Origin: Schmidtea polychroa
Lineage: Eukaryota
Reading direction: 5' to 3'
Assembly: GCA_044892525.1 (NCBI GenBank)
Contig: CM097885.1
Location: forward strand, 23,126,001-23,190,000
Length of the DNA stretch: 64,000 nt
The notes under the pieces were generated by a model. It was not told the origin of the DNA and searched no databases. It worked only from the letters and a program-made list of their open reading frames with translations. Positions 19,886-44,855 of this stretch are shown one piece after another (the stretch's first letter is position 1; the number at the start of each line of letters is the position of its first letter). The position numbers and the translations under genes were made by a program.

Positions 19886-20119
19886 AATCACTCCGGGGCC
19901 CGTTAAAATTGCGCCCCGCAATTCACATAATGTCATTCATTCGAATCATACCTTCGTTCGGTATAACAACTAATCTCACAATCAAATTTTACACAAACAT
20001 AAAATTAAAAATTAACTAGATAATACTTTAATTAAACAGATAAAAAGGACAAATATAAGCAAGCAGTGGTCACTTAAGGTGACCGGATATATATACACAA
20101 AGTTTATGAATAGTCGATG

Positions 20120-20770
20120 TCACATCATCTCAAGGTTCGAAATGTTATTACTGCCCTGGTTGCTTTTCGGGGATCTTTGGGAGTTCTGGATTGGATGGAT
20201 GGTCGAAGTTGTTGCTGTGGAGAGCTGGATTATAACGGGTATTTGATTAGGAGACCGATTTTGTTGTATTTGGTCGAGTGGGTCTGGTTGTTGGAAATGT
20301 ACTGCTCGTTTATGTATGTTTCGGAATCGCAGGTTCTTTCTTTTGGGTTTCTCGGATAGTGGCTGGTTTCTTTTCCATGTTCGATAGATATCATACGCTT
20401 TCCAGGTGACTAGCGCGCATATGATAATGGTTTCACTGATTGTAGCGTAGAATAAAACTTGGCTTTCTTTTGCTTCTTTCTTTACGATGATTTCCTTCAA
20501 AGATTGTTGATTGGTTGATTCTTGTAGGAGGGTTTCAAGTTGTTCGATTCTTTGGGTTTGCAGGTTGAGTTGCTTTTGGATCTTTTGCCAGACGGCTTTG
20601 TTCCAGCATTGTTTCGGGATATTATTGGAGGGCTTTCTTTCATTTTTCAGTTTGATTAATGGGCTTTGCTGTTTCTCGGGATTCTCCCAGGGTGTTGGGA
20701 TTGACTGCCACATGGATATGCCGTTTATCGCTATCATTATTATTGCCACCAGGGTTGCTCCGAACCTCAT
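20120..20770 (-). CDS. Cargo ORF: 216-aa predicted type-I membrane protein
   Basis: Hydrophobic N-terminus MRFGATLVAIIMIAINGISMW, short coiled coil, second hydrophobic segment VLFYATISETIIICALVTW, then a basic/Q-rich tail. Confidence 0.7.
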   Translation of the reverse strand: MRFGATLVAIIMIAINGISMWQSIPTPWENPEKQQSPLIKLKNERKPSNNIPKQCWNKAVWQKIQKQLNLQTQRIEQLETLLQESTNQQSLKEIIVKKEAKESQVLFYATISETIIICALVTWKAYDIYRTWKRNQPLSEKPKRKNLRFRNIHKRAVHFQQPDPLDQIQQNRSPNQIPVIIQLSTATTSTIHPIQNSQRSPKSNQGSNNISNLEMM

Positions 20771-20824
20771 ACTACTATACGAAAGTTTTATTTACAATTA
20801 TTTACATTGATTATTCATCTTTAA

Positions 20825-21526
20825 TTATTGTCGGGTTTTCTTTTTACGGGTTTTCTCGGATGTTCTCATCACTTTCGTTTCCGCTTTTATTACTCGTTTT
20901 CTTAATTCGGGTAGTACTTCTAATTGTTTGTCTCTTTCGTCTAACTGTTGCTTTAGGGTTATTATTTTTCCTTTTAGTGCTTTTATTTCTTGCGTTGCTC
21001 TTTCGAGGTTTTTATGGTTCATTATTTGTAGAAAATCATTTCCTCTTTCCTCGTCTCCTCCGTCGTCTATTTCTTGGTATTTGTTGTTCATTCGTCTCAT
21101 TATCTCACATTCTTTCTGTTTTTGGTATAGTTGTAGTTGTAGCTCTTTCAGACTTTCTTGGTGTTTTCGGGCCTCGGTTTTCCAATAATCGCTAATCACT
21201 TCATCTGCCTTTCTACTGGCTCTTTCCTGCCATAATTCTCCCGCAATCTTCTCCCAATTTCTTCCTCGTTTTCTCTGCTCGTGGAGCCATTCGTTTTCTT
21301 CCTCCACTTCTTTCTTTACTTCTTCTAACAAGGTATATTCTTTTTTCAATACTTTGATCATTTTTCGATTGTCTCTCCATCTTTCTACTAATCTTTCGTT
21401 TTCTTGTCTCTCCTCTTGTAATTCTTCCTTGATAGTTTTCTTCCTTTCCACCTCCTCAACTTCAATTTCTCCCTCTTCTAGCTCGATTATGGATGTTATG
21501 ATGGGTTGTCCATTTTCAATATTCAT
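20825..21526 (-). CDS. Cargo ORF: 233-aa E/K-rich coiled-coil protein of unknown function
   Basis: Open frame with heptad-like composition; AG acceptor 3 nt before the ATG. Confidence 0.7.
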   Translation of the reverse strand: MNIENGQPIITSIIELEEGEIEVEEVERKKTIKEELQEERQENERLVERWRDNRKMIKVLKKEYTLLEEVKKEVEEENEWLHEQRKRGRNWEKIAGELWQERASRKADEVISDYWKTEARKHQESLKELQLQLYQKQKECEIMRRMNNKYQEIDDGGDEERGNDFLQIMNHKNLERATQEIKALKGKIITLKQQLDERDKQLEVLPELRKRVIKAETKVMRTSEKTRKKKTRQ

Positions 21527-21716
21527 TTTCTATAATATATACATAATTAAAAATTGCGCTACAGTGCGGCTTATACTTATACATTTATATGTAATTTTAT
21601 ATAATCAGGGTTACAGTCCCGTCAATACTTTTATCGTACTATTAATTTTTTTGTTGGGATATAGGTCCCGATTTTTTTTTTTTTTTTTTTTATATTTTTA
21701 TCTCTTCCATTTATCT

Positions 21717-22738
21717 TCATACGAAGGTTTCTTCCTGGCCTACGTATCCTTCATCGCTTTCTACTGATGTTTGTAGTTGGAGTGCGATGGGATCGAATGG
21801 AATGTAGTACCGGGGAATCTGCGCTCTAAGTTCTTGGATTTCGTCTCTTAGCGCTCTTGACACGTTGAGTTCCTCGTCCAACAGGTATGTTAGATACCTG
21901 GTTTCGTCATCCCTTACTTCGATCTGTTTTTCTAATTCTTCCGCTTTTTCGCCGTTTTCCCATTTCTTGATTTCTTTTTCGAGGTTCTTGATGTTTTCAT
22001 CATACATCTTCCTCTCGTTTTCTAATTTCTTGTTCTTACCGGCTAGCACGATATTCCTTTGTTCTAGTGCCCCCTTATAGCCGTTATTGTCTCTTTCAAG
22101 GTCTGCCACCTTATTTACGAGCTCGACGATTCTACCTGACTGTTGCAGGGTCATCTCTTCCATGGCGGTATTCTCCTGTTCTTTCATAGACAGTTTCATG
22201 GCCAGATGCCTTTCAAATTCCATGGCCTTGGTCTGCCAGGTTTGACTACTTTCCTTCTTAGCTCTTCTCTCTGATCAAGATTTTCTTCCCATTTCCCTTG
22301 TTCACTTTCGTATTCCAATCTCTGCGGCAATTCTCTCATTTCTTTTTTAATTTCCCGATGTTGTCTTTTCCACTTTCTGGCTTCTGCTACTAATTGACGG
22401 GTCTTCCTTTCCTCCTTCTGTTTTTCTATTTCCCGCTTCTTATTCTCATCAGTTAGTCTTTTCCTTGACTCCTGTACCAGTTGCTTCAGGTAATGCCCGT
22501 GTGCCTCTTGCCTGGTACTTTCTAATGCTGACCATTTAGCGGCTCTTTTGCAGGCCTCGGCCTCCGCTCGTAAATTCTGCACTAACCACTGGAACTGGTG
22601 GTTTTCCCATTCTCTCGCTTCTTCGAGGTAATTTCGTGTTTGATTTGATAATTGCGCCATCACTTTGGCCCATCTTTCTCTGTGTATTCTACTGATTTTT
22701 ATTTCGTTGTTTGGGGCTTCCGTTTGATCTTGAGTCAT
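21717..22738 (-). CDS. Cargo coiled-coil ORF(s): 180 aa (22196-22738) and 168 aa (21717-22223), probably one ~340-aa protein with a 1-nt frameshift
   Basis: The two ORFs overlap, and the downstream frame is open upstream of its ATG (ERRAKKESSQTWQTKAMEFERH). Confidence 0.6.
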
Positions 22739-22958
22739 CTTTGTCTGAATAACGATATCATTAACTCAACGTCGTACACTTATATCTGTTCTATTATTTA
22801 TTTATTGTTACAATTCGTTATAGGGAGTTGTTTTAGGAGTTTTCCGCTTAAGTTTACCTTTAGTAGATTTGGGGAATTTTTCTACACTACTATATAATAT
22901 TTTACTGGATATATACACCGATATCTACAATTTAGTATATGCAAAATTATTCGTCTCA

Positions 22959-24347
22959 CTACTCTGTTCTACTTTTCCCATCTCGCCTCACTGTTATCTT
23001 TATGTATATGGTATCGTTTCTCGTCATATCTTCTACTTTTCGCTGCAAGATGAAATTCGGTGCTCCGGTTGCTGGTCCTTCTTCTTCCAATGGCCTTTGA
23101 TAACATACGAGGTTTCCCGCTGTATGGAAACTCTGTTCGTGTATACTTTGGTGGTTCATCATTGCGAGGTCTATTTTTGCTTTAAACGGCCATTCTATTA
23201 TTTCGTCGTACAACCCTTTGCATATCAAGAAGAATACTGAAAAATGTGTTCCGTATGCACTTCCATCCCCGTTGGGATATGCTTTCATTTTCATTTTATA
23301 CCCGTTTTTCCATGAATAGAATGCTGGACTTAGTAATGTTGTATCCTTTCCATTTTTGGCTCTCTGCATTTTCTCTTGTACTCCCGTTATTTTCCATATG
23401 TATGGAGCCGTTGGTATTAATTCGTTGAGGTTCATTTCGCTTACTTTTTGATATAGTTCTTTCACCATATTGTTGCTAGTTTCTACTAGATCTGTCTGTA
23501 TCTTTGTATTTGTTCTTGCCCCTACGAATGCTTCTTTCTCCTGTAGTAATTCCTTTACTAACGCTTTTAGCTAGATTTTTTCTCTTTCTAAGTTCTCGGT
23601 TTTCCTTTCGTTTTCTTGTAATACCGTTGAACACATTTCTGTGTGTGTTGCTACGTTCTCTGCTAAATGTTGGGGTAATTCTCCTCGGTGTAATTGTTTT
23701 TGACATCCCCATTTTCCTAATACACACGTTATCTTTTTCTTTCGACATTCTCTTAGATGTTGAGCGAGTTTTATTACTCCGGATTCATCGCATTCGTTAG
23801 GACATTCGCCTCTGAACTCTGTGCATACTTTTTCCTCTTGTACGTTATGGTGTTGACTAGTCAGTTTTCTTCGGGTATCGGTTTCTCCGCAGTATTCACA
23901 TTTTTCCAGCCTTTCTACGCATCGACTTTGATGTTCTTCCTCTTCCTTTGCTTTAATCTCTTCCTGGCAACGTTCGCATTGACTGATTTTATACTCACAC
24001 TTCTCTATATGTTGCCTCACTTCCCATATCACTCCTCGCCCATTGCACGGGGTGTTTTTACATCCTAAATTTGCATTTAACATATCTTTCACTGCCGCTT
24101 TGTCCTCGTTTGTATCTCCCAAACTGGTTATCATGGTTTCTTTACATACTGGGCACCATTGTGGTCCCTTCTTTATTATCTCCTCTATGCATCCCTTGCA
24201 CATCCTACATCCACATCTGGTTTGGTGAGGTTCTTTTAATAAGCTCTTGCATATTCCACACGTTACATGGTTGTGTATTCGAATTGTGGTGGATTTTCTG
24301 ACTTGTTCGACAATCTCTTTGAACTCTTCTCGTTGTCGCTTATCCAT
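22959..24347 (-). CDS. TRAF: Intronless TRAF-family protein (RING, TRAF zinc fingers, coiled coil, MATH/TRAF-C) with one in-frame TAG at 23571-23573
   Basis: RING CGICKSLLKEPHQTRCGHR-like (CGCRMCKGC..CPVC), repeated C-x-C/H-x-C fingers (HIEKCEY, HQSRCVERLEKCEYC, HLRECRKKKITCVLGKWGC), and MATH motifs YIWKI, SPAFYS...GYKM...YPNGDG...THFSVFF...G.YD..IEWPF. 23570-23469 is 34 open codons linking the two ORFs in frame. Confidence 0.92.
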
Positions 24348-24435
24348 TTCTATAATTATACATATACATATATTCGTTACTGGTACAGTTTCGTATTTTT
24401 ATTTACAGTTATTTACATTTTGTTTTAGGTTATAT

Positions 24436-24795
24436 TTATTGGCTGGAAGAGTCGGCCTCTTGTCCGCCCTCTTCCCTACTGGTTAACCATTCTGACCAGT
24501 CTTCTATCTCCTCTCGCTCCATCTCTTCGGCGATTCTCATTAACTCCTCTTCCTGTCCCTGGCTGTATCGCGATATTCGCTCTATTTCTCGCTGCATTTG
24601 CTCTATTTTTATTCGTTGATCTTCGATTATTCTTACATAACTGAATCCTTTATTTAGACTCTCGATTAGATTTCTTTGTACAGCCAGTCCTTGTTCTTGC
24701 AAATTTGAAATTACTTGAGCTAACATTGCACATTGTTGTTTCCACATCTCCTCGGTTGTTGTTTTGTGAGTTACTTCATGGTTTATTTGCTCCAT
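24436..24795 (-). CDS. Cargo ORF: 119-aa helical/coiled-coil protein of unknown function
   Basis: Open frame directly after pol, preceded by TTTAAG|A ATG. Confidence 0.55.
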   Translation of the reverse strand: MEQINHEVTHKTTTEEMWKQQCAMLAQVISNLQEQGLAVQRNLIESLNKGFSYVRIIEDQRIKIEQMQREIERISRYSQGQEEELMRIAEEMEREEIEDWSEWLTSREEGGQEADSSSQ

Positions 24796-24961
24796 TCTTA
24801 AATATATACACTTTTCAACCCTTATCTAATTTTAATTTTATGTTATTTATCCCGTCATTATATAATATTGATACCGCGCTCATATAAAAATATAGAGTAC
24901 TGTTATATAAATAAATATTACCGACTTACTTTTTACAATCTATATACAGTCATAATCCTTT

Positions 24962-27900
24962 CTATATACGTGAGTTTGGAGGTCGCTGAGCATTCCAGGC
25001 CTCCACCCACTGTTCCTGCTTGATATTATTTGGTCTTTTTACCCGATGCTGAAAATTTCTGATTCTGGTCATTTCCAGTTCTCCGCGATGCCGTCTATCT
25101 TTGATTATTTTTATTGTTCCCCCCGTTATAATTAAAAATGCCCCTGTTATTATTATTCCGCTGATCCACATCATCTGTTTTACGCTTATAATTTCCGATT
25201 TTTCCTTGTTCGTTATTGTTGATATCGTCTCTGTACTTTTTGGATTACCGCTTTTACTATTTCCTTTTATCATCCCTCGTATCCTTGCTACCTCCTCGTT
25301 CATACCTTCCTTTGCAATCTTTTGTATTTTTTCCATCTCCTCCTCGGATACATAATTGTCCTGATATTTCTCACTGGTTTTCTTGCGCTTTCTTTCCTCA
25401 TCTTTTTCATCATTGATTTTTCTTTTCTTCCCTCTTTTCCCCGGGTATCGTCGACATTCTCTTTCTGGACAGTTTCTCAGGATACAGACCGTATATTCCT
25501 TTGGTGGTTGTTGTTGCGTTACATATTGTAGACAGTTTTCTCCTGGTCCTAGCCTTGAAATACACACTTTGTGCTCTTTTCTTGGTTGAAGCTGTGTTAT
25601 CACTATTTCACCTCCTTTACTCAGGTGTACCTCTTTCCATTTGACTTTTGTTATCTTCTTCCCGTTTCGATGTTGGTACGCTTCTTGTATTCCCACTTCC
25701 GTTATTGGTTCTGCATCTTCATTTTTTAACACTAGTCTCTGATAAGCTCTAGACATACATCTTCCTAATATACACCTTTCTTTTAAATCCCATTCTTCTT
25801 TTAGATCCCATTGTTGCTCTTGTACTTGCTTTTTCTTTTCTTGTTTTAGTTCTTCCTCTTTGTTGTCCTTATTTTCCGTTTCTTTGGCTTCTTTTATCGT
25901 TCTCATTCCTCCCTGGGCTGTTATCATTTCCACCATTGTTAATACGAGTATCATTATCATCATATTTGTCTCCATTTCTTTGTTGGTAAAAAGTAGGCAT
26001 ACCCTCTGTTTTCCAATATTCGTCTTTTCTTCTTGCTTCATTCGGTTTCCCGGGTTATCCTCTTCCTTTTTCGTACTTGCGTTGTTATTTTCTTGATTAT
26101 TCTCCTCTGGTTTCTCGTTCTCTTTATTCCCGTTTCGACTTTTCTCATTATTATCGTCGTCTTTATCGTCTTTATCTTTATCGTCTTTATCTCCCCCGCT
26201 GTCGTTTAAAATGTCGTCCTCGACATTTATATCGTTCAACAATCTGCGATATGCTGTTAGCACTCTATTTCTTGCTAATTTTGCTTCGAATTCGAACTCT
26301 TTTCTGCCTGTTGCTGCATGTCTCTTTCTATTCCATTCTTTTACCAGTTCTCTCAATTGTATCCGACGATGTTTTCCGATTCGCTTTTGTTCGTTTTGAC
26401 TTTGCGTGAATTTGAGGTCTTCCCTGTTTAATACGATCATTATGATTTTCGGAGTGCCTCCTTTTGCTAATGTATTCTTAACCATTGCATTTTCTCCGTT
26501 TTCGTAGAACTCATTTATATTTATTGCATATTTATTGCTTTGTGGTATTTTCCATGTTAACAGTAACTTCATGGCTTCCAAATTTTTCCGTATCGTATTC
26601 CATTGGAACTGTGACGTGTTTTTACAGATATTTTCTACCTCAGTTCTTATAGCATTCTTACAAATGAATCTAATCATTTCCAAGTTTGGTTGTGTTGTTG
26701 CCCAATCCATGGTAGAATTCCCTTCGTTTGATATTTCGTCAAGCCTTGATCCTGATTGATGTAGTATATGTAATGTTTTCGGGTGTATATTTGTTATTGC
26801 TGCATACATCATTGCTGTTTCTCCTTGTTCATTTTTTGCATTAGATTCTTCTCCTAAGTCTCTAAGAATTCTTATGATGGTTATCGCTCTGTTTTCCTTT
26901 GCTGCTAGTATTGCTTGTTGTAATGGTGTTCTTGAATCTTTTGTTGGTATGGTGAACGCTAGTGGTATGAATGTTTTTATTTTACCTATGTCTAAATTTG
27001 TAGTTTGATCTCTTGCGTAGGTGTGTACTGTTTTTATTATTTTTGCCAGTATCGCTTCATCAGATAAATCTAGCATTTCTTCAAAGAACACCTCTTTGGC
27101 TTTGCGTATTATTATCTCTTGGTCTGAGTTTATTATCCTGGCTTTACCTGTCGTTGTTATATCAGTTATTATTTGATCGACTTGTTCCTCAGACTCTCTT
27201 GTTTTTACTTTCTTTATTTTTAACTTTTTCTTGTTTGAACTGTTAATGCGTTCCTCCGCCGTTAGAACTTGAATAATACTGAGGTAAGTTTCTCGAATGT
27301 TATTCATATTTTCCATCATATATAAAACACTCACGGTTTCCCAATATTTTACTTGTACTTTATCGGTGAATTGCGATATGGATTTTTCAAAATTAGTAAT
27401 TCGCTTTCTGATCAGGTGTTCGTCTTTATGGTTTGAGAGTTTTATACCTCGCTGTAATAGTTGATTTGGGATTTCAAATAGGTGATGTCCTCTCATTGCT
27501 TCTCTCATCAAGGTGTTTTCTCCTTTGGTAAATGTTTCGTTTATGTCTACCATATAATCGTTTTTCATCGGGTTTCTCCACGAAATTAGTACACTAGTAA
27601 TTGATATTAATTTCCCTTTGATAGCGGTTAATAGCCCGTCGTACATGTTTCCTATTTCTCTGTTATCCTCGTATGACAATAGGTCTACTAAGGTTATGAA
27701 TGCTTCGGTGCTTTTTCCTTCGATTGCATGATGTAGTGCATTTTTCTGATCGTGGTCTTGTGTGGTTATCTTTGATCCGGTTTCTAGTAATGCTATTATG
27801 ATATCCTTAGTTTTATCTCGATTTGCTGCTATCATTAGTGGAGTATAACCTTGATTGTTTTCTTGATCTGTCGAAATGTTACAATCGCGGAATGCTTCAA

Positions 27901-30900
27901 TTGTTTCTAGTATTTGTTCATTATTACCCACCTTTAAAAGCTTGTGCAGTGGTGTATCTCCGTAGTGGTCTGTGATCGTGAATAATATAGGCCATTGGCT
28001 TTTAACTACCCTGAGCAATGGGTGTGTTCTTTCTCGATTTGCATAGTTTTCTATCATTGTTAGCAGACCGCCCAATATCTCAAAATCTAATCTATCTTTT
28101 GCCCATCCGGGTATTTTAGTTTTTACCTCTTTCATGATTTTCTCGGCTTCTGATGGTTGTAGTCCCAATCGATTGCTTGTTGGTTCGTTTATCTGTTGTA
28201 ACATATTTATTCTATATGTTTGTGATCTTGTTGTTAATGTACGTCCTTCCGGCTGACTGGTGGCTGTTTTCGGTATTGGCTTACATCGCGCCACATTTAC
28301 ATATATTGGCCTTGTAAAGGGATTGTTTACCAATCGTACTCTCACATTGGTTTCTCCGACGAATAGAATCTCATACGGACCTTTGCCGTTTCGTTGCAAT
28401 TTCTTGGTGGTTCCTGGGATCAATTCTGGCGTTTCAATCATCACCCAATCACCGGTTTGAAATGTATGTTGTTTAACGTTTTTCTTTCTATCATGCAGAT
28501 CTTTGTAACTTTCCTGATAAAACTTTATATTCAACCCTGCAGTTTCCCAGATTTCCTGCATTCTTTCCTTGAACTTGGTTACATAATCATCTATTTCCAT
28601 ATATTGAGATATGGGTGGCTGATACTCCAAGTCCATTGGAATATTACATTCTCTGCCGTACATCAACTTGAACGGACTCATCTTTGTGGACGCGTGAATT
28701 GACATTCTGTAAGCCATTAAACATAATTTTATATACTCATCCCAATCCCGTTGATGACGATCGACATAATTTGATAACATTTGAATCAATGTTCCATTGA
28801 ATCTTTCTGTCATACCATTTGTTTGTGGATGATATGGTGATGTTCTTAATTTTGCAATCTTGAAGTAATTGGTTACTTCGCTCATTATTTCACTCATGAA
28901 ATTTGTTCCTTGATCGGTCAGTATTTGTTTCGGCGTTCCATATCGACAACATATTTCCTCTACTAATAGTTTTGCTATTGTTTTGGCTTTCTGATCTGCC
29001 ATGGCGAACGCTTCGGGGAATTTCGTCAAATAATCTGTGATCACCAATATATATATATTCCCTCTATCTGATTCTGGTAGTGGACCGACTACGTCCATAG
29101 ATATCATTGTCATTGGTTCTGCTGGTACTGGCATTGGTTTTAATGGTACCTTCCATTTTGTTCCCGTGTTCTTTCTGGTTGCGCAAGTTATGCAATTTTT
29201 TACCCATTCCGTTACGTCTTCAGTCAATGTAGGCCAAAAATACTTTTGTTTCATTCGTGCTAACGTCTTTTTTGATGACATATGTCCTCCGAGTCTTCCG
29301 TCATGGTATTGTGTTAGCAAATCTTTACGTCTATTCTCTGGAATACACATTAGTCTTTTATCACCATCCATTATCAATAACCAATCCTTTTCTATTATAT
29401 ATCGATGTCGATGTTTATCCATATGCTCTTTCAGTTTTTGATCTTTCTCATATACCTCTGCTTTCCCTGTTTTCACATATTCAATGATTTGCTTCAACTC
29501 TGCATCCTCTTGTTGGTCTTTTCGTAATTGGCAAAAATCTAAATCTTCCGCTACCATCAGACATATCCGTTGCATTTCGTGATCTACTAAATCTGGAAAG
29601 ATAAATCTTGACATACAATCTGCATTTGCATTTGCTCTTCCTGCTTTGAACTTTATGAACGGTGAATATTCTTGTAACTGCATTGCCCATCGCATTAATC
29701 TGCTTGAAGCTTCTTTGTGCTGTCCGAGCCATACTAATGGTTGATGATCAGTGGTTATGCATATTTCGTGACCCCACAACAAATATCGAAAATGCTTAAT
29801 CGCTTGTATTATTGGTAGCGCTTCTCTCTCTGTTACTGAATAGTTTTTCTCATGCTTTTTAAACGTTCTGCTGTAATAGCCGATTACTCTTTCTTTTCCT
29901 TCCTCATCTAGTTGTCCCAATATTGCTCCGGCTGCATATCCACTTGCATCTGTGGCTAATAAAAACGGTTTCTTGAAATCCGGATGTACTAGTATTGGGG
30001 CTTCAATTAATTTATCTCGCAATGTTTCAAAGGCTTTTTGCTGTTCTGCTCCCCAGATAAATGAAATGTCTTTTTTCACTAATTCCTGGATTGGTTTCGC
30101 AATACTTGCATAATTTTTAATGAATTTCCGATAATATCGGCATAATCCGAGGAATTCTTGAACTTGGGTGACAGTTTTCGGTGCTGGACAGGTTTTTATT
30201 TTTTCTATATTTCTTGGATCGGGTTCTTTGCCTTTTGCTGACACTATGTGTCCTAAAAACGTAACTTTCTCTTTTGCCCAATCACATTTTGATGGTTTGA
30301 ATTTCAACTTCCATTGTCGCAATCGAATGAACACGTTTCTGATATCTTCCAAATGTTGTTCGAATGTAGCTGAATATATTAATAAATCATCAATATATAC
30401 CATGCACTGCTTGATCCCGTGCGTGACAAAATTCATGCACCTCTGAAATGATGCTGGGGCATTGGTCAGTCCAAATGGCATTTTCCTGAATTGATACAGA
30501 TCTCGACCCAATGTGAAGGCTGTTTTCTCTTTGTCCTCCTCCTTGACTTTGATCTGCCAATATCCGCTCTTTAGATCTAAAGACGTAAAATATGCGGCCC
30601 CCTGTAGCATAAGCAACATCTCATTGATGTCTGGTAGTGGGTATGTATCTCTTTTCGTTACTGCATTTAGCTTCCGATAATCGATGCAAAATCTCTGGGT
30701 ACCGTCGTTTTTCTTCACCATGACTACCGGAAATTGCCATGGTGAACAACTTGGTTCGATCACTTTTGCATCCAACATCTTTTGTACTTCTGCTTCCGCT
30801 ATCTCTTTTTGTTTTTCCGCTAGTTTGTATGGGCGTAATGCAATCGGGGTTTCGTCTATTAAGCGTATTGCGTGTAATGTGACATCGCATGCTCCCAAAT

Positions 30901-31072
30901 CTAAATCCGAAATAGCGAATATATCTTTATATTCTATTAATAATTGTTGGAGTTTTCCCCTTTCATTCTCTGTTAGCAAGGTACTATCAATTATCCATAA
31001 TTCGTCATCTGTGGTTGATTCGTTCGTGGCTTTTGGTAACTCGATATCCATCATGGGTGTTAATCTACCCAA
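24962..31072 (-). CDS. pol: 2036-aa polyprotein: RT - RNase H - integrase - ankyrin repeats - internal hydrophobic segment - FN3-like domain - C-terminal transmembrane helix
   Basis: RT: RFCIDYRKLN, LDLKSGYWQI, MPFGLTNAP, YIDD (30386-30397). RNase H: TDASG, YYSR, TDHQPL. Integrase: HHCC, DVV/TDQG/TERF, GPY. Ankyrin: GDTPLH, GYTPLMIAA, KNALHHAI, RTPLQQAI, GETAMMYAA. FN3-like: ITQLQPRKEHKVCI. TM: MMWISGIIITGAFLIITGGTIKII. The ORF-track start is a TTG, and the frame continues upstream past one TAA at 31175-31177. Confidence 0.95.
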   Translation of the reverse strand: MGRLTPMMDIELPKATNESTTDDELWIIDSTLLTENERGKLQQLLIEYKDIFAISDLDLGACDVTLHAIRLIDETPIALRPYKLAEKQKEIAEAEVQKMLDAKVIEPSCSPWQFPVVMVKKNDGTQRFCIDYRKLNAVTKRDTYPLPDINEMLLMLQGAAYFTSLDLKSGYWQIKVKEEDKEKTAFTLGRDLYQFRKMPFGLTNAPASFQRCMNFVTHGIKQCMVYIDDLLIYSATFEQHLEDIRNVFIRLRQWKLKFKPSKCDWAKEKVTFLGHIVSAKGKEPDPRNIEKIKTCPAPKTVTQVQEFLGLCRYYRKFIKNYASIAKPIQELVKKDISFIWGAEQQKAFETLRDKLIEAPILVHPDFKKPFLLATDASGYAAGAILGQLDEEGKERVIGYYSRTFKKHEKNYSVTEREALPIIQAIKHFRYLLWGHEICITTDHQPLVWLGQHKEASSRLMRWAMQLQEYSPFIKFKAGRANANADCMSRFIFPDLVDHEMQRICLMVAEDLDFCQLRKDQQEDAELKQIIEYVKTGKAEVYEKDQKLKEHMDKHRHRYIIEKDWLLIMDGDKRLMCIPENRRKDLLTQYHDGRLGGHMSSKKTLARMKQKYFWPTLTEDVTEWVKNCITCATRKNTGTKWKVPLKPMPVPAEPMTMISMDVVGPLPESDRGNIYILVITDYLTKFPEAFAMADQKAKTIAKLLVEEICCRYGTPKQILTDQGTNFMSEIMSEVTNYFKIAKLRTSPYHPQTNGMTERFNGTLIQMLSNYVDRHQRDWDEYIKLCLMAYRMSIHASTKMSPFKLMYGRECNIPMDLEYQPPISQYMEIDDYVTKFKERMQEIWETAGLNIKFYQESYKDLHDRKKNVKQHTFQTGDWVMIETPELIPGTTKKLQRNGKGPYEILFVGETNVRVRLVNNPFTRPIYVNVARCKPIPKTATSQPEGRTLTTRSQTYRINMLQQINEPTSNRLGLQPSEAEKIMKEVKTKIPGWAKDRLDFEILGGLLTMIENYANRERTHPLLRVVKSQWPILFTITDHYGDTPLHKLLKVGNNEQILETIEAFRDCNISTDQENNQGYTPLMIAANRDKTKDIIIALLETGSKITTQDHDQKNALHHAIEGKSTEAFITLVDLLSYEDNREIGNMYDGLLTAIKGKLISITSVLISWRNPMKNDYMVDINETFTKGENTLMREAMRGHHLFEIPNQLLQRGIKLSNHKDEHLIRKRITNFEKSISQFTDKVQVKYWETVSVLYMMENMNNIRETYLSIIQVLTAEERINSSNKKKLKIKKVKTRESEEQVDQIITDITTTGKARIINSDQEIIIRKAKEVFFEEMLDLSDEAILAKIIKTVHTYARDQTTNLDIGKIKTFIPLAFTIPTKDSRTPLQQAILAAKENRAITIIRILRDLGEESNAKNEQGETAMMYAAITNIHPKTLHILHQSGSRLDEISNEGNSTMDWATTQPNLEMIRFICKNAIRTEVENICKNTSQFQWNTIRKNLEAMKLLLTWKIPQSNKYAININEFYENGENAMVKNTLAKGGTPKIIMIVLNREDLKFTQSQNEQKRIGKHRRIQLRELVKEWNRKRHAATGRKEFEFEAKLARNRVLTAYRRLLNDINVEDDILNDSGGDKDDKDKDDKDDDNNEKSRNGNKENEKPEENNQENNNASTKKEEDNPGNRMKQEEKTNIGKQRVCLLFTNKEMETNMMIMILVLTMVEMITAQGGMRTIKEAKETENKDNKEEELKQEKKKQVQEQQWDLKEEWDLKERCILGRCMSRAYQRLVLKNEDAEPITEVGIQEAYQHRNGKKITKVKWKEVHLSKGGEIVITQLQPRKEHKVCISRLGPGENCLQYVTQQQPPKEYTVCILRNCPERECRRYPGKRGKKRKINDEKDEERKRKKTSEKYQDNYVSEEEMEKIQKIAKEGMNEEVARIRGMIKGNSKSGNPKSTETISTITNKEKSEIISVKQMMWISGIIITGAFLIITGGTIKIIKDRRHRGELEMTRIRNFQHRVKRPNNIKQEQWVEAWNAQRPPNSRI

Positions 31073-31540
31073 TCGTTCATTTTCATATATGATTTTATCT
31101 TCTTCCTCGAAATTCGTGATGTTGATTGGTATTTCTCCTTCTTCATTTATCGTTATTATTTCTCGTGCTAATGGTTATTCTCGTCTTTTTTCGAATGATT
31201 TACTTGGTTCAAAGATAGCTTCTCCTTCCATTCCCCATACAATTCTTCGTGGAATATAATTACCCATCAACCCATAGTTTTCGTCGATTTTAAATTATCT
31301 ATTTGGGGTAGTAACAATTATCTATATGGTCGTATAAATTATCTATAGTTATTACTTATAATATCGATAGGTCGTTGTCGGTTGCTGCTTATTACCCCCC
31401 TTATTTCCTTAATCCTTTTACGCGGTTCCGCTATTTTACTTAATCTTTCGTCTCTGTTTCCCCTTACTCGGTTCTAATCTGAACCAAAAGTCAAACTCGT
31501 TTAACCGGTTTAAACCACAAAAATCTGTAGAACTCCGTCT

Positions 31541-31550
31541 ACTCACCTGG
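31541..31550 (-). promoter_or_regulatory. Consensus 5' splice donor CAG|GTGAGT upstream of pol (candidate major splice donor)
   Basis: The plus strand reads ACTCACCTGG; this is a perfect donor consensus in a non-coding leader. Its function is inferred. Confidence 0.45.
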
Positions 31551-31809
31551 CGTCCCCTTTAATCAATTAATTATTTCTTCTTTATTCATTATCTAATCAC
31601 ACTTATTCTTTATTTTCAATTATCTTAATTCCTTTTCCTTTTCTGTTTCTCCGTTTCCACTAAAAGAATTTTACTATCATCTTCTACCAGCTCGTTTAAT
31701 CCTCTCTAAATTCGAATTCTCATATCCAAATTCAATTCATTTCTAACTAGCTTAATATCCTATCTCATTATCAACTTAGATACTATCCAATCATTTTCTA
31801 GGCCTTTAC

Positions 31810-32208
31810 GACTGGCTGGCACTTTTCACCAGCTCAGTTTCAAATTCCTTGACCGGCTGGACTTCTCGACAGCTCGGCCTTAATATCTCCGACTGGCTGG
31901 ACTTTTCACAGCTCAGTTTCAAATTCCTTGACCGGCTGGATTCTCGACAGCTCGGCCTTAATATCTCCGACTGGCTGGACTTTTCACAGCTCAGTTTCAA
32001 ATTCCTTGACCGGCTGGACTTCTCGACAGCTCGGCCTTAATATCTCCGACTGGCTGGACTTTTCACAGCTCAGTTTCAAATTCCTTGACCGGCTGGACTT
32101 CTCGACAGCTCGGCCTTAATATCTCCGACTGGCTGGACTTTTCACAGCTCAGTTTCAAATCCCTTGACCGGCTGGACTTCTCGACAGCTCGGTCTTAATA
32201 TCTCCGAT
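31810..32208. repeat. Tandem array of a 79-bp unit (~5 copies; each unit has two related ~40-bp halves)
   Basis: GCTCAGTTTC recurs at 31832, 31911, 31989, 32068 and 32147. Confidence 0.93.
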
Positions 32209-32788
32209 TCAGCATGCTTCCACTTCTATCCTATCTTTATTCTAGACTGTCATTTTCCTACTTTTACTTTTTATTTGTCGACCTAATCTGTGCCGCTTGA
32301 GAGTGTTTCCCCTTTCCCCCCTTGCTCAAAACGCAAAACGATCGCATTGATCCATTTCCACATTAGTATGGTGATCAGCCATACCGCAGAAACTTTTCAA
32401 TATTCGCGATGGTACCTCGCCTTACATCTCTTCCTCGGGGTGATCGGTTATCCCTTCCCAAACAGTTTTTCAAATATCGTACCTCCCGAAGGTGGCTCGG
32501 TTTATTCCCCCTTTAATCTTATGGTGGGACTAGTTCCACTTTATATAATCAAATTGAATTTTTAAATACCCTTTCTTCATGGTGAAAATTATGATATAAC
32601 AAATCGAATTATAGCTACGCAAAAATGAAATAAACACACAAAATGATTTATTGATTATTCAGCTCATACTACATGCGATATATGATACTCTTATTAAAAC
32701 ATTAACCAATCAAATCAAAAAAAATTAAAATGTTTAGTCTTAATTGTTCAATTCAGCCAAATTCTCCTCACCGAGTGACGATCGCGTG

Positions 32789-33253
32789 TTAGTGGAAGTA
32801 TACCGTGTGTGTCTCTTTTATCACACACGCACATAAAGAACAATGGGTTAAGTTGGCGACGCATTCATCACAATGGCTTAGGTGTCCGCAAGGTAATATC
32901 AACATTCTGCCAGGTCGTGTCTTACAAATATTACACCCTAACCCTTCAATCAAGACTCGTATCCTCTTAGATAAAGTTTTTACTTGCTCGCGTATTCTTA
33001 TGTATTCGATATTCAAGACGGGATCGTCAAGACGTTGCTGAAGCCATTGGTAATGAATAGACAAGTCGGTGTTGGTATTTGTTGATCCTAATCTGTCGGT
33101 TAGAAAGTTTTGTTTGGATATCAGCGGTGCGTTGTGGCGTTGTTGCTCTAAGAGTTCTATTTGTTTCAGTTTCTCTTTTAATGTCTTTATTGAGTCGTTT
33201 TCTATATCGATGAATCTGCTTAGCTGTTGTAGATGTTGCCTAGCTTCTGACAT
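32789..33253 (-). CDS. Cargo ORF: 154-aa coiled coil plus C-terminal IAP/MDM2/MYLIP-type C3HC4 RING (probable E3 ligase)
   Basis: CNICKTRPGRMLILPCGHLSHCDECVANLTHCSLCACVIKETHTVY matches the IAP-class RING spacing, with the RING at the extreme C-terminus. No BIR seen. Confidence 0.85.
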   Translation of the reverse strand: MSEARQHLQQLSRFIDIENDSIKTLKEKLKQIELLEQQRHNAPLISKQNFLTDRLGSTNTNTDLSIHYQWLQQRLDDPVLNIEYIRIREQVKTLSKRIRVLIEGLGCNICKTRPGRMLILPCGHLSHCDECVANLTHCSLCACVIKETHTVYFH

Positions 33254-33673
33254 ATCTGAATAAATGTATGGTTATTATTTGTTCCTACTGGTATTATCAA
33301 TAATACTATTATGTTTGCATTTAATAATCGTTTATCTTTCATTTGTTATCGTTTCTAGCTTTTGTATTTTATTTAATCTTTAACAATCCCTCCGTCGTAT
33401 TTTCGACTTTAATCATTTAATTAAAATTAAAACAAAAATAACTAATTCCCGTTTTCTTTTCTCATCATACTCAATCATGTTCCTTCATACTCCTTTAGAC
33501 TCGTTTTCATTCATGCATACTCTATTCAAACACATATAGTTCGTATTGTCCTTCTGTCACACGATAAAATCAAATCAATTTAGTTGGGTCCCGATTCTAT
33601 TTATCATAATCCATTAAATCACTCAACCAACACATCATGACACAATAATAGGCCATCAAAACAAATCAAATTC

Positions 33674-33691
33674 ATCCCGGCTGAGCCCCCA
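33674..33691 (-). promoter_or_regulatory. Primer-binding site, tRNA-Pro-like (TGGGGGCTCAGCCGGGAT)
   Basis: 18 nt resembling the complement of tRNA-Pro 3' ends, 7 nt inside the 5' LTR boundary. Confidence 0.75.
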
Positions 33692-34229
33692 AAAATCATG
33701 TTGGCGTATGTGGGGAAAAGAAAATATACATGCATATCATACACATCAAGCATCATGATTCCGCTCAGGCCATTCCCGCACACACTCCAGATGATCATTC
33801 ACAAATTCCCACGTATGAGCCCGTGGTGATGTTCCACGTTGGTGCTGCTCACACGGGTTGGAAAAAGTCAGCAGGTGAGCCCCTGTCTTAGGACTACTCC
33901 TAACCCTTTCTCGGTTCGGGTTCCATGGCGCCCTAGAAGGTCTTACCCGGTTCTTCGCACAAAAATTCAGTCCGACCCTGGTCCAAGGGGACGACATTTA
34001 AGCCTCTACTACGCTTTCAGGATCCTGCTCTTCCGCAATTCAACCATAGCAATGCATACATTCAATTAGCACAATCAAAGAAAATAGAACAGTTGTATTA
34101 TATCGGAACATTAAGATACATCCATCATTATGTAAATAAATATAAAACAGTAAAGATTAGGCACAAGATAACGTCAATTTTTCAAGTTTATTCGTAATAG
34201 CAGAGAATCGAGACCCGAGAAGAAATTTA

Positions 34230-34991
34230 CTACGAGAATGCTTCTCCTTCTGCAAGCATCTCGTCGATGTCAACCGGCAATCGTTGGTTGGAAAGGTACT
34301 TAATGCCTTCTGCCGGAACGATGCGAAAGATTTCCTTTGTGGGAATTGAGTGACTAGACGATATCTCTTTTATGGTGGATTTGGCTGCAGATAGTGACGC
34401 TTCGAGTGCAGCCATTGCATCTCGGCGTTTCTGATTTTTCTCGGCTCGGGTTGGCCGTTTTCGTTTGCGAGATGGCGGAGGGTTGTCCGTGTTCGAGGTG
34501 ACGACGGGAGCCACTAGGATTGGAGCTAAGATGGGATCAGTAGGTCCACCCACCAAAGGTTGATAACCAGATAATGTTGGAGCCGGGACGGGTGGTAGAT
34601 ATGAACCATGTCCTTGGCAGTTTGTGGTGGTCGATTGAGATACCTGATGATGAAGTGGGAAGACGTTGGTATTCTCCAAGACGGGGAATTCCCGTACCCG
34701 CTTGGCCAGTTCCGCCTCCGTATAAACCTTGTGGAGGCCTTCGGACTGGGCTTTAAAAGTCAATCGTTGATTTCGGCTCTCCTCTAGGAGGCTATCTCTG
34801 CGGTGTTCTAGTCGGAGAATCTTACTCCGCTCCTCCTTAATTTGTGGCGGGGAGAACCACGTACCCTCATAGAGATCGATTCTCTTCTTCAATGCCCCGA
34901 TGTATAGGTGAAGTTGTGCTATGTCGGCATTTTTATCCGCACACGAGAAGCACGGTCGAAGTTCCTTAGTGTTGCTGGAAGATGTCGTCAT
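34230..34991 (-). CDS. LTR-encoded 253-aa protein (CxxC plus coiled coil, Pro-rich linker, basic RKRKRPTRAEKNQKRR segment)
   Basis: Intact ORF; homologues at 47747-48508 and 43159-~43913, with mainly synonymous divergence. Confidence 0.85.
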   Translation of the reverse strand: MTTSSSNTKELRPCFSCADKNADIAQLHLYIGALKKRIDLYEGTWFSPPQIKEERSKILRLEHRRDSLLEESRNQRLTFKAQSEGLHKVYTEAELAKRVREFPVLENTNVFPLHHQVSQSTTTNCQGHGSYLPPVPAPTLSGYQPLVGGPTDPILAPILVAPVVTSNTDNPPPSRKRKRPTRAEKNQKRRDAMAALEASLSAAKSTIKEISSSHSIPTKEIFRIVPAEGIKYLSNQRLPVDIDEMLAEGEAFS

Positions 34992-37299
34992 TCTAGAAAA
35001 TCAATCAGTTTTATATCGAGTCAGGACATTTATTTTCGAATGACACAGTCGAGTTTAGAACATAAGCTGGCCATCTTATCTATCATCTCACCCAATGACA
35101 ACCCACAGATCTCATCATCCGTTCTCATTCACTGGCATTCCACTACAAACATTCAAATTCACTCATACAATCGTTTACGAAAAAGGGAACGGGAATTTGA
35201 TTAAGAAACGCCTCTGATCTAGGTCCACTTCCTTATCATATCGTTATTCTCTAGTTTTCTCATTACTGTCTCAGCTTTCTATCGATGTAATTATACCTAA
35301 TGACTTTAAAACGAGACCAAAATCCCCGACAACTTATGGCCAATTATATGTTAAACTACTCTAGGGGAATTATAATAAGAAAATTTAGTTAGAAAACTGA
35401 ATATTAAATTAAAATTTCCAGTGATTTAAATTATACGCGGAATTCGTCGTCATGGAGACATTTATTTAGTTGTACATTCTGATTGGATAGCTAGAGGTGT
35501 CAATCTTCCGATCGCAATTATAATTGTGCATTAGTTGTTATTTTTCGAGCAACTGTCTGTACTATTGGAAAAGATTATTGCTTGTCTAGTAAATTGGAGA
35601 AAAATCTAATTCCTCACCCTAGTCTGTTGAAAATTTATTTCTGAAGAAAATCCATGTATTCACGTGATCATTACATCACCAGCATTTCCTACCAAGCAGT
35701 AGATTCATTTGTACACCGCATTACATGAGAGTGACAGAAGTGTGTGTATGTACTATGACAGAATAGAACGGATTACATAATCGGCTTTCCGACAAGAAGC
35801 AGTAGACAAATTGCGAATCCGATTTATCAGCGCAAGCAACCGACGATGTAGCAGAGTGCGGAGTAAGTTGACTTTGTTATCAAATTTCATTTCATGATGT
35901 TGACTCAGGATAATGATTATTAGCTGGTTCACTCGACTATTCCTACTCACAGAGCGATATAGCATCAATTTAAGTTAGCATTATCAGATAACCCTGTTGG
36001 CTGACGGTAAACTGGCTATTGCAAATCAATTGAATACGGTTATCGTTGACGATAATTTCCCTCGACCTCATAGTAAGTATTCCTAAATTTTTATCGTACC
36101 GTGTTTACCTACCCGTCAAAGAGAGATTATTCCCTGCTGGTGTCTGTGGCTCAAGGACAGAAATTCGACATTCAAGAGTACATCGATGGTGGATGTAACT
36201 GCTAACAACCGGGTGACAGATTTAAAAGAAAAGAAAATCGAATTCCGCAGAAGGTGAAGACATTATACAATATCTCTGACTGATTCGTGAAATGGTGATG
36301 GTAATGCCTCCGAAAAATGCTCTAACGACGACCTGACTGTCATGAGGATCCTCTTTGCCTGCGTGGATTACCATTAGTTCAATGTCAATATCAAATGTCT
36401 ATCTCTGTCTAATTCTTGGCCATTTCTAAAATTCGTTGACACAAATTTTTTGGAATTTTCGCCATAAGAATGGAACTAATCGCAGAACGATCGCACTCGG
36501 TGGAAATAATTTTACTCCGCAAACGCATCTCAACTACTAAGTCTCTTCACCCCTCATGACACACCCAAGAAGGCATTCATTTCTGCCGCCATTCTTGCAC
36601 CGTCATGAGGGACCAATCGACTCATTCAACTTCAACATCTTTAGCATCATGTATGATTATAAAGCAATAAAATCATGAACAAATAAATAAATATAAAAAT
36701 TCTTACCCGGCAACCATATCATCTGGCATCCAAGTATGATGTCTCCCCTTCTCAAGCTGCGTACTCAATCATCACTTTTATAACCATCTCATCAATTATG
36801 CTCATATTCTCCAAAGATCTAAAAAATCTTCGACATTGCCTAGATACATTCTACAAAATTTCCTCGTGACATATCTCTGCTGACCACATCATACTCGGAT
36901 CTTCCAGAGGATACAGCTGCCGGCACCATGAAGAAAAGATAATTGTCATTTAAATAAAATTTATTCTATGAAATGAGTTTTGTTTTTCATTTTAACCATC
37001 AAATTAGCAAACATAAATAATTAATAAACCAAAATAAGTCACCATACCTAGAGCTTCGAAAAATTGGAACGAATTGAATTTAAAACTGATTTCGTAATAA
37101 ACTGGTCACTAGTCGTTCGGTAACTTCCTGTAAATGTAAGTTCTGGAATCTCTGAAGTGATGCTTGTGAGTATGGTTCTGTGGAATATCTGTGATCGGTA
37201 ATCTGTAATCTGTAATCGTGAAAAATCAAAGTGGGTTAACTTCTTCTTAAAAATTTTACCTGTAATCGTGAAAAATCAAAGTGGGTGTCTTCTAATTTT

Positions 37300-37335
37300 T
37301 CACGTTACATATATAGTATTTTTCGTCCAATCAGG
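37300..37335 (-). promoter_or_regulatory. LTR promoter: inverted CCAAT (CTGATTGG) plus TATA box ~500 nt inside the LTR
   Basis: The same ATTGG...TATATA arrangement occurs in the solo LTRs at ~45355-45379 and ~42106-42143. Confidence 0.6.
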
Positions 37336-40300
37336 ACGCAGCTTGTTTGTGATTTTCTATTTATTATTATTTTTTTATGTTTTTATTATAATGTATTGGG
37401 TTTTAATAACTTAACTTATTTCTTATTATTATTTTATTTATTTTTCTTATTTTTCTCTTATTTTCTGTGGACTTATTGTTATTTGAATGTAATATAATTT
37501 TTTGTTTTAATTAAACTTAGAAATGGTTTTATTTTTTATTTATTTCTTTAATTTTCCCGTTTATTTGTTTCACTTTTTTGTTCATTCTATTTTTATTTCA
37601 TCCGCTGTGTGTCTTAAATCGTTTTATTTCTAAATCTTAGGGGTTTATTAGGTTTTATTTAATTAGGTTACTTATTCTTATTCTTTTGTTAGTATTTTAC
37701 TGTTCCTTCCTATTTACTAATGAGATATGATGGTAATTTATATATTTCTTATTTTCATTTATTTTTCGAGGTTTACCTTTCTATTCGTTCCAGTTTTCTC
37801 CGCTCTGAAATTTAACCCAACACAAGTATGAGTCCGAAATTTTAAGTAACATTAAATAAATTTACAGAAAAGAAATTTCTGTACAAAATTCTTACGAAAT
37901 TCCAAACATATAAAACTTTCGATGTCTGAGAAAATGTCTGAGAAAACGAATAAAACCCTTATAGGTGAGATAAAGGGATTCTTCAAAAATCCAAAAAAAC
38001 AAGTTATTATACGAATCCGTAATCAAATAAATAAATTGAAAAACAAAATTTTGAATAAATTGAATAGCACAATAATTTCAATGTTGAAGTCTCTAAACTT
38101 GAGATTCCCAACGTTGCTGTGATAACTATATATAAGACAAAGTCTGGTTATCAAATATTTATTTAAAATTCAAATTTCTTACCAATACAATCCTTTTGAG
38201 ATTTGATTTCACTGGAAAATAATCGTGGGTGTTTAATATTATGTTAGTGCGTTATGTTGAGTACTACGGTTAAACTTTACTGTCGTGTCTTGTTAAAGAT
38301 TAAAAACTAATAAGGTTTTTAAATTATCTAGTGTTTCCAGGCCAAGGAAAACTAAAACCAAAACAACATAATAATAAAACATATTAAAACAACACAACAA
38401 CATAATAATTTTCTTTTTGAATATAGTTATATTTTTTCAGACTTTCTCCATATTCGTAAATATTTCGTGATGTACTATTTGTTATTGTGTAAGTTTTAAT
38501 TTAATATTCTTTTAACATTAACCTTCCTAATGTTTTCCTTTTCAAACCTTTTAATGATTTTAACTTAACCTGCTCTGAATCATTTAAAAATCTCTGAATT
38601 ATATAACAAATTCAAAAAAAGCTTATTATCATTTAACATTCTCAGTGTCATGGCAGTCATTTTTGACTGACAGTGCTTTGCCACTTGCACCACAACAGGT
38701 CTTTTACAGGTAAAAATGTAATTTTTTTGTTGTCAGACACATTTATCTACCAATACTCTGTGTCAGGTCGATTTGTCTAACAGAGACTTTTTAAAAAATA
38801 ATTTTGTGAGGTCAATGTGTCTGACAATAACATGTTAAAAAGGCTGTTTTTCTGTGGCACTGTATTAACAGTAACCATAGGCTCGTATAGATCTTTTTGC
38901 ATGAACTTAAATTGTAAAAAGGCTTTATTGGAGCAAAATTTTAAAATGAAATATACAGTTTGATGTTCATATAAATTAATAAAATTAAAAATTATTTCAC
39001 TATTTTTTGATGCATTGAAATTTAAAAAATAAAACTATTAAATATGCAATTAATATTATTAAAATTTAATCTCACACTAATAAACGAATAACCATTTCTT
39101 GTTTGATGTTGTTTAAACCGTCAATTTATTTAAATTTCCTTTTAAAATATTTTCTCAAACATGTCCTCCAACATTAATTCATGTAATTATTTGATTACTA
39201 ATAAGTAAAGTCTAGAAACGAAGAAAAAACAATATAAAGTAAAGTTTGATTATATTCAATTTTTTCTAAAAATTAAATTTAAGTTGACAAATGAATTCTG
39301 GCATTTATTAGAATATAGAAACTTGAATTAAAAACAGATTATTTCGTAGAAAATTTAGAGATGAGAAATTTGTAAGGTATATTAATATTTTAGTTTTGAT
39401 ACAAATATTGTAAGTTATTAATTCTTTGATAATGATAATTTGATTTATTATGAATACTCGGCTTCACATGTATATAACGTATATAGTTATTATTCATAAA
39501 TTTATTGTGATTAATGCTTTAATATTTACATTTTAATTTATGTTTTGATCTTGATATAATTAGGTTATTATCAGATTTTGAAGTTAAAGGAAAATGTACT
39601 AGCTGAACGTTGTGAGTTTTGGCTAATTGTATCGATTAGATCGTTACACCTATAACTGTTAGAATTCTATATAGTTAATAGATTAGAAAATTAGGCACAC
39701 TGGCGACCTTATGAAGTTGATAATTTCCCTACTACTATTATGCCTAAATATGGTCAGTTTATCCAACAAGATATTTTGTCCCCATATGGGTAATGGTCAC
39801 AAATTTACTGCTCGAAAAAATCTCTTGCCCCATTATTAACAAATTATTATTCCAACGAAACATATGTAGTTGCATGCTGACTGCAACATACATTTTCAAT
39901 ATGAAGACTTAATTATACCAAATAATCTTCAATGAAACTATAACGAGTTTTCAGTAATAAAATTTTGTGTACTATAAAAATCAACACCAAAATAAATGTT
40001 TTTTATATATTGATATCATATATTAGCCGCTTAATAAAACATCGTCGATATTGATGTTACCACAATCCATATTTACATTATTATTGTGATTGTTATCATC
40101 GGAATCATCTAAGTCCGGACTCATTCCGTCAAAAAGTGGACCAACTTCAAATACCTGGTCAATATCTGGAACATTGAGTCCTAAATAATAACCATATGCC
40201 AGACTGGTATTAGGCCCCACCCATAGCCGCTTGTCACTAAGCTATGAACGCTGGCCTACCACAAGCAAGCTATCCTTGTAATAGTGCCCAAATGTCAAAA

Positions 40301-44431: not shown

Positions 44432-44855
44432 ATCGAAAAAAAACTCTTCAATTGGGTTGAGCTCTGGTGAGTAAGGTATTAGAAATTTCACGGGATTTCG
44501 ATTTTCGGACAATAAATTCTGAACATATCTTGAATGATGAAACTTTGCATGGTCCATTACCAGAAATTTGATTGGGTTTTGTCGAAAGTAGGAAATTAGA
44601 TGTTCACGTATAAACTCGATAAATAGAGATTGGTTATATGAACCAGTTCGATATTGATAGGCAACTATACCATTTATTCCAATCACACACATTAAACTTC
44701 TATTCACATTTCTGTTAGCAGGAACTTGGATAAAAGCATTTGCGTTTATAGGAGAATACCCTTATGCCCTATGTTAGGAGGTTCCTATTATATTTGTGCG
44801 TATTATATGCCTTATATTATATGTATTATGCTTGTACTTATGTTCGTGAATGCTG

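Follow-up and report, generated by a model that had tools for sequence, protein, structure and literature searches.

How does one retroelement express many separate open reading frames (ORFs)? The question is raised by a 64,000-nucleotide (nt) stretch of Schmidtea polychroa DNA (GenBank assembly GCA_044892525.1, contig CM097885.1, positions 23,126,001 to 23,190,000, forward strand; here, the window), which carries on its minus strand a 22-kb long terminal repeat (LTR) element that appears to be a giant Gypsy of the Burro type. Burro-type elements are abundant in planarian genomes, with TRAF, RING, and other host-like cargo, and the expression of many separate ORFs is not addressed in the literature passages found. 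In S. mediterranea, Burro RNA increases upon piwi knockdown (PMC8532177). An original prediction, made from the sequence alone, had seen acceptor-like AGs before nearly every cargo ATG and proposed either cis-splicing from a leader donor or spliced-leader (SL) trans-splicing. Here, we report that a YAG or AAG lies 1 to 6 nt before each accessory ATG, and we consider it likely that these are splice acceptors and that the genes are expressed by cis-splicing of a predicted AUG-free, two-exon leader from the 5′ LTR onto each of them.

Acceptor motifs before the accessory ORFs

The accessory ORFs of the window copy were as follows (positions count from the first letter of the window; lengths in amino acids [aa] where given).
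34230..34994, minus strand: LTR-encoded ORF, 253 aa, without Pfam match; putative acceptor AG ends at 34993
32789..33257, minus strand: RING-finger ORF, 154 aa; putative acceptor AG ends at 33256
24436..24798, minus strand: 119-aa cargo ORF; putative AAG acceptor, the weakest site, ends at 24797
22959..24351, minus strand: TRAF ORF (RING, zinc fingers, and MATH), broken in the window copy by a stop at 23571-23573; putative acceptor AG ends at 24350
21717..22746, minus strand: cargo ORF, 345 aa in other copies, with a frameshift near 22200-22250 in the window copy; putative acceptor AG ends at 22745
20825..21531, minus strand: 233-aa cargo ORF; putative acceptor AG ends at 21530
20120..20776, minus strand: 216-aa cargo ORF; the conserved putative acceptor AG ends at 20772, that of the original prediction at 20775

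The window copy is defective, with TRAF split by the stop and the next ORF by the frameshift, both being whole elsewhere (462 aa and 345 aa). The starts at 23468 and 22223, which the original prediction had omitted, were rejected as separate genes, being fragments of these two ORFs; judged by comparison between copies, the true accessory set is seven ORFs, and "nearly every" understated a pattern found at every one. Median pairwise ratios of nonsynonymous to synonymous substitution (dN/dS) were 0.08 to 0.14 for six accessory ORFs and 0.41 for the 216-aa ORF (6 to 28 unsaturated pairs per ORF among 6 to 11 intact copies). All seven are under purifying selection and are therefore likely translated.

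The nine AG|ATG contexts and the CAG|GTGAGT at 31546 cited in the original prediction were all present as written. An AG lay within 6 nt of the ATG at 7/7 accessory ORFs (distance, 1 to 6 nt) and was a YAG at six, the site at 24795 being AAG. In dinucleotide-preserving shuffles of the seven upstream stretches, 7/7 AG was reached in 5/20,000 and 6 YAG in 1/20,000 (the 6-nt threshold was set after data inspection). As background, 21% of the element's 497 ATGs had a YAG within 6 nt, and 46% had an AG. At the 216-aa ORF (ATG at 20770), the originally proposed AG, 4 nt from the ATG, was kept in 10/14 copies; the conserved AG lies at a distance of 1 nt (14/14). Six B/C-type starts of this ORF also had an AG at −4.

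The motif recurred in other copies. Among those matched by anchors (some were missed), the ATG had an AG no more than 6 nt upstream in 9/9 for RING, 18/18 for the 119-aa ORF, 19/19 for TRAF, 17/17 for the 345-aa ORF, 19/19 for the 233-aa ORF, and 14/14 for the 216-aa ORF. Genome-wide, 95 of 96 exact matches to RING starts were immediately preceded by YAG (19 CAG, 76 TAG). The LTR ORF had a YAG 0 to 10 nt before its ATG, behind T-rich tracts, in 38/38 distinct contexts (background, 28%); contexts counted were rows with a protein-motif match, which excluded 4 of the 10 most diverged loci. These acceptors are kept although the upstream sequence is unrelated between subfamilies, and their distances to the ATG (0, 1, 2, 3, 5, 9, and 10 nt) follow no frame constraint. 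Upstream of gag, intact copies also carried a T-tract acceptor with 504 to 681 ATG-free nt behind it (15/15), in a region deleted from the window copy. The acceptor reading is thus supported by the chance tests and by conservation across copies with otherwise unrelated upstream sequence.

An open gag frame extends ~107 to 115 codons ahead of its first ATG in intact copies (L016, L024, L045, and others), through conserved coding-like sequence, which suggests that gag may begin at a non-AUG start. A GT(A/G)AGC lies only 38 to 39 nt before the gag acceptor in intact copies such as these three.

A predicted two-exon leader in the LTR

The candidate donor of the original prediction (31541..31546, minus strand) is probably not the leader donor: its GT was lost in 3/9 close copies in which the site aligned and was present in 3/11 in a wider alignment, and better candidates lay in the LTR, where the following features were found.
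37310..37333, minus strand: putative core promoter, with inverted CCAAT box and TATA box (37315)
37260..37286, minus strand: predicted exon 1 of the leader (27 nt), reaching from a Y|A initiator ~30 nt past the TATA box to donor 1
37210..37259, minus strand: predicted GT-AG mini-intron, 50 nt, whose last 27 nt (37236-37210) are a copy of exon 1
37048..37209, minus strand: predicted leader exon 2, 162 nt, ATG-free, with donor 2 at 37047
36930..36965, minus strand: poly(A) signal (36965) of the LTR with its cleavage region, both predicted, 82 nt past donor 2
15762..19885, minus strand: 3′ LTR, repeating the leader features (TATA 19378, mini-intron 19322-19273, exon 2 19272-19111)
44856..49056, plus strand: solo LTR of a sister subfamily with a 4-bp target duplication and the same leader design (donor 1 at 45426); ORF at 47747
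41778..44330, plus strand: LTR from a subfamily further removed, with an approximate 3′ end; ORF at 43159, donor 1 at 42192

The likely leader donors are those at 37259 and 37047. To compare leaders between elements, 60 loci were fetched by promoter motif only (the first 30 from each of two sets of matches, one of 598 and one of 220), giving 51 distinct promoters. An AG|GT lay 50 to 60 nt after the TATA box in 40/51. A duplicate of exon 1, ending in AG, followed 44 to 54 nt downstream in 35/51 (34 with GT); six more had the GT without a scored duplicate, and 10 were scored without donor and intron. Each duplicate was 99% identical to its own exon 1, against 50% for exon 1 between elements (30 distinct 22-mers). 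Identity began at TATA+27 to +32 in 32/35 and ended at the donor, with an intron length of 44 to 54 nt; by column, it was ~0.5 at TATA+27 to +28, 0.86 to 1.0 from +30, and at background beyond the donor. The duplicate is likely the imprint of reverse-transcribed spliced RNA. Tandem-repeat slippage was disfavored as its origin, as the two ends of the duplicated stretch coincide with the predicted cap site and donor in ~30 lineages and the spacer keeps the GT and a length of 44 to 54 nt; slippage or recombination could have supplied part of the pattern, and precise intron loss could arise by recombination too. One locus (L132) has a longer repeat.

Downstream of acceptor 1, the first ATG came at +131 or later in 35/35 promoters, each with a GT donor motif ahead of it, and the first 160 nt were ATG-free in 23/35 versus 8% expected (CAT-free control, 4/35; later window, 0/35). 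In 3/35, an ATG lay no more than a few bases from the predicted cap. An A(A/T)TAAA preceded a conserved pyrimidine-CA anchor by 12 to 45 nt in 38 of the 42 LTRs with the anchor (control window, 2/42); nine LTRs were without it.

In the proposed mechanism, a single Pol II start ~30 nt after the TATA box in the LTR would serve the element, and removal of the mini-intron would join exon 1 to exon 2 as a two-exon, AUG-free leader. Donor 2 (37047) would then be spliced to the acceptors of the LTR ORF, RING, gag (in intact copies), and the five cargo ORFs, so that the ATG of each would become the first AUG of its own mRNA; because donor 2 would join an acceptor before each ORF, acceptors could lie 0 to 10 nt from the ATG in any frame. 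U1 bound at the leader donors might suppress the 5′ LTR poly(A) site in the manner of foamy viruses. Packaged RNA would have the mini-intron spliced at its capped 5′ end and retained in the 3′ R copy; strong-stop cDNA would anneal through exon 2 and, in each round of replication, overwrite the intron tail with exon 1, the intron being kept. Such overwriting would account for where the duplicate begins and ends, for its element-specific identity, and for the LTRs that have no intron. If the self-renewing intron is real, an LTR retroelement can keep an intron even though it is copied through spliced RNA, and cap sites and donors can be read from DNA alone. The leader model predicts exact, testable junctions.

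Long inverted repeats, hairpin-forming and conserved with substitutions across subfamilies, lie in the LTR just past the predicted poly(A) site (36700-36930, also 36560-36620, minus strand). Rfam gave no match at gathering score, the LTR hairpins included.

Evidence for and against leader splicing

At the DNA level, features expected of cis-splicing from a common leader were found: an acceptor before every ORF, conserved leader donors, and an AUG-free leader. Several observations weigh against it. The DNA imprint is direct evidence for donor 1 only; splicing from donor 2 to the cargo is inferred from the AUG-free exon 2, the acceptors, and analogy. Retro-copies of donor-2 junctions gave 0 matches for the LTR-ORF and TRAF patterns and none in the 51 promoter loci (two RING retro-copy candidates proved unspliced). 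Young families keep other spacer AGs too (for example, 18/18 and 19/19), so that conserved columns do not by themselves decide the matter at the five cargo sites; the copies compared are also related to one another. Four cargo acceptors (those of the TRAF, 233-aa, 216-aa, and 119-aa ORFs) are rich in TA and not in pyrimidines, one of them being AAG, and the leader lies ~20 kb from the cargo acceptors in full-length copies.

RNA was sought in assembled contigs of four runs, compared with a copy of 98% identity over its cargo region; none of the listed runs is recorded as RNA, and for run X1 this is a guess. Contigs covered all 30 bins of this region. X1 contigs crossed the 216-aa and 119-aa acceptors unspliced, a further point against splicing and a weak one because read-through is expected in a nested scheme. 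Nor was a junction at an acceptor seen in the contigs listed from the four runs (cargo region only), or a loose end at an acceptor among the six X1 loose ends listed (743 over the four runs were outside the listing). An apparent X1/X2 joint from the 119-aa spacer to the 216-aa spacer was discarded as a misalignment: it has no GT-AG ends and lies on a motif common to both spacers.

The SL reading of the original prediction, now confined to the 3′ cargo array and taken as operon-like, with SL trans-splicing onto acceptors freed by cleavage and polyadenylation in each spacer and the LTR leader serving only the upstream ORFs, seems unlikely. Flatworms have SL trans-splicing, operons with ~100-nt spacers, and acceptors common to cis- and trans-splicing (available passages of PMC8629364 and PMC12582326); the cargo spacers here measure 54 to 220 nt and are enriched in TGTA (19 seen, 8.2 expected). 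A(A/T)TAAA was present in 4/5 of them, in keeping with the AATAAA originally noted, but without enrichment (5 seen, 8.2 expected). Trans-splicing prefers acceptors without an upstream donor (PMC8629364, same passages), whereas conserved cis donors (37259 and 37047) and an AUG-free leader lie upstream here; the acceptors are thus not unpaired as in an SL operon, though spacer cleavage could still unpair them. Flatworm SLs reported in the available part of PMC12582326 end in AUG, which would be out of frame at 5/7 sites, and the lack of frame constraint at the LTR ORF also speaks against an SL.

An internal promoter of its own for each accessory ORF, the AG belonging to a short 5′ untranslated region intron or to an initiator, is rated as quite improbable. 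TATA-like TA runs and a recurring TGTAHATA occur in the spacers, but the runs lie 10 to 20 nt from the ATG, too near for a TATA box with a start at +30; the CCAAT box is in no cargo spacer, GT(A/G)AG donors are at chance level (1 seen, 1.2 expected), and one spacer is merely 54 nt long. A second CCAAT-like box (31793) and a TA-rich motif (31780-31793, minus strand), conserved in close copies, follow the 79-nt tandem array and are a possible internal promoter for gag-pol. We give least credence to translation from long RNAs, whether through reinitiation or internal entry, in which the AG would reflect chance or start-codon context. The frequency of AG near ATGs on this A-rich strand and the unspliced X1 contigs agree with it; the shuffle test, the one to three upstream ATGs in each cargo spacer, and the AUG-free leader, which it leaves unexplained, do not. 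A Kozak-type explanation of the AG was rejected, as the AG-to-ATG distance varies, unlike a Kozak position, and position −3 switches between C and T while the AG stays fixed. Of the splicing program first proposed, then, the acceptors are supported and cis-splicing from a leader is favored, with donors in the LTR instead of at 31546 and with SL trans-splicing less likely.

TGTAHATA was found eight times in the cargo spacers versus 0.7 expected (0/5,000 shuffles). The 22-kb element has nine sense copies (20097-24948, minus strand), all following pol or cargo stops: 14 to 42 nt after the stop in 4/5 spacers and after the last ORF, some of them 15 to 21 nt before the next ATG, with H varying between subfamilies. 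We take the motif to resemble a Pumilio element or CFIm UGUA sites.

The element and known systems

The remaining features of the element are listed here.
15762..37822, minus strand: giant Gypsy LTR element of probable Burro type, 22 kb, internally deleted, with TG...CA ends and a 4-bp target duplication
33699..37822, minus strand: 5′ LTR, 4.1 kb, 99.7% identical to the 3′ LTR
33675..33691, minus strand: primer-binding-site-like motif just after the LTR, conserved in copies; the matching tRNA is presumably that for Pro
31809..32207, minus strand: 79-nt tandem array
24962..31054, minus strand: reverse transcriptase (RT)-RNase H-integrase-ankyrin ORF, a polyprotein remnant
31218..31234, minus strand: internal-deletion junction, ~8.4 kb lost; in other copies, the gag acceptor and the coding sequence for Gag, fusion protein, and protease stand here

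From 5′ to 3′, the element holds the 253-aa LTR ORF, the primer-binding-site-like motif, the RING ORF, the 79-nt array, the RT-RNase H-integrase-ankyrin ORF, and the cargo ORFs. The element has the marks of Gypsy (Metaviridae): paired LTRs that end in TG...CA, a short target duplication, and the domain order RT-RNase H-integrase, with a protease upstream in an intact relative. By Pfam, the polyprotein of this relative contains Gag, CCHC knuckles, a weak Bcl-2 match (below the cut-off), a fusion glycoprotein, protease, RT, RNase H, integrase, and ankyrin. Pfam found nothing above cut-off for the LTR ORF (34230-34991), the 233-aa ORF (20825-21526), or the 345-aa protein (L005:3868-4902). Protein searches found no relative of the LTR ORF or the 233-aa protein and turned up no transcript-derived relatives; a metagenome scan found nothing. 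Strong purifying selection nevertheless acts on all three of these proteins.

In one copy (L016:2474-3030; L004 near 7227-7260), both LTRs are cut to ~550 bp and end just past the TATA box, with no leader or primer-binding-site motif seen there. The solo LTR at 44856-49056 is apparently inserted into one LTR of a smaller, degraded minus-strand Gypsy (44789-53919; 197-bp repeat at 49057 and 53723). Elsewhere in the window are a 16-nt tandem array (484-672) and, named from their translations, an integrase-like ORF of another LTR element (12385-13632) and a broken DDE-transposase-like ORF pair (55180-56119).

Burro/GYPSM1 are giant Gypsy-like LTR elements of planarians, and the window element fits their description in the available part of PMC6431247. 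It shares with them multi-kilobase LTRs, a single polyprotein in intact relatives (in L045 and L046, with ankyrin repeats and with gag and pol separated by an in-frame env-like region), and RING and TRAF/MATH cargo, MATH and RING being found by Pfam; a BIR domain had no match among the proteins scanned with Pfam. It differs in that TRAF is a separate ORF downstream of pol, accompanied by six more accessory ORFs. Unlike its intact Burro-type relatives, the window copy is short of ~8.4 kb, the env-like region included. By its match to the published description, the element appears to be a young Burro-type giant Gypsy. The element family and leader splicing in complex viruses are already known. 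A literature search returned no description of Burro splicing or of such intron renewal; the primary Burro paper and its supplements were outside that search and may bear on novelty.

HIV and HTLV express accessory genes from spliced RNAs. The adenovirus major late unit joins a multi-exon, AUG-free tripartite leader to many ATG-proximal acceptors, and the design predicted here resembles it in both respects; adenovirus is, however, a DNA virus without reverse transcription, and its separate poly(A) families are not claimed for the element. With complex retroviruses and foamy viruses, the element would share one LTR promoter, a leader donor that lies in R ahead of the poly(A) signal, and accessory genes on subgenomic spliced RNAs; in foamy virus, U1 binding at such a donor suppresses the 5′ site (available part of PMC3694450). 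Unlike complex retroviruses, it is of Gypsy type, with seven or eight nonoverlapping, ATG-proximal acceptors and a two-exon leader, and its genomic RNA is apparently spliced at a self-renewing mini-intron. Tandem ORFs, spacers of 50 to 220 nt, and acceptors near the ATG recall the SL operons of flatworms and nematodes (available passages of PMC8629364 and PMC12582326), whereas the leader here is probably cis-encoded and an AUG at the end of an SL would miss the reading frame at most sites. On balance, we lean slightly toward the wider view that a Gypsy-type element has converged on a program like those of adenovirus and complex retroviruses, in which one two-exon leader would serve seven or eight genes, genomic RNA would be spliced at a mini-intron rebuilt every cycle, LTR lineages would record their own cap site and donor in DNA, and TGTAHATA in the cargo spacers would perhaps let a host RNA-binding protein set the choice of 3′ end or acceptor.

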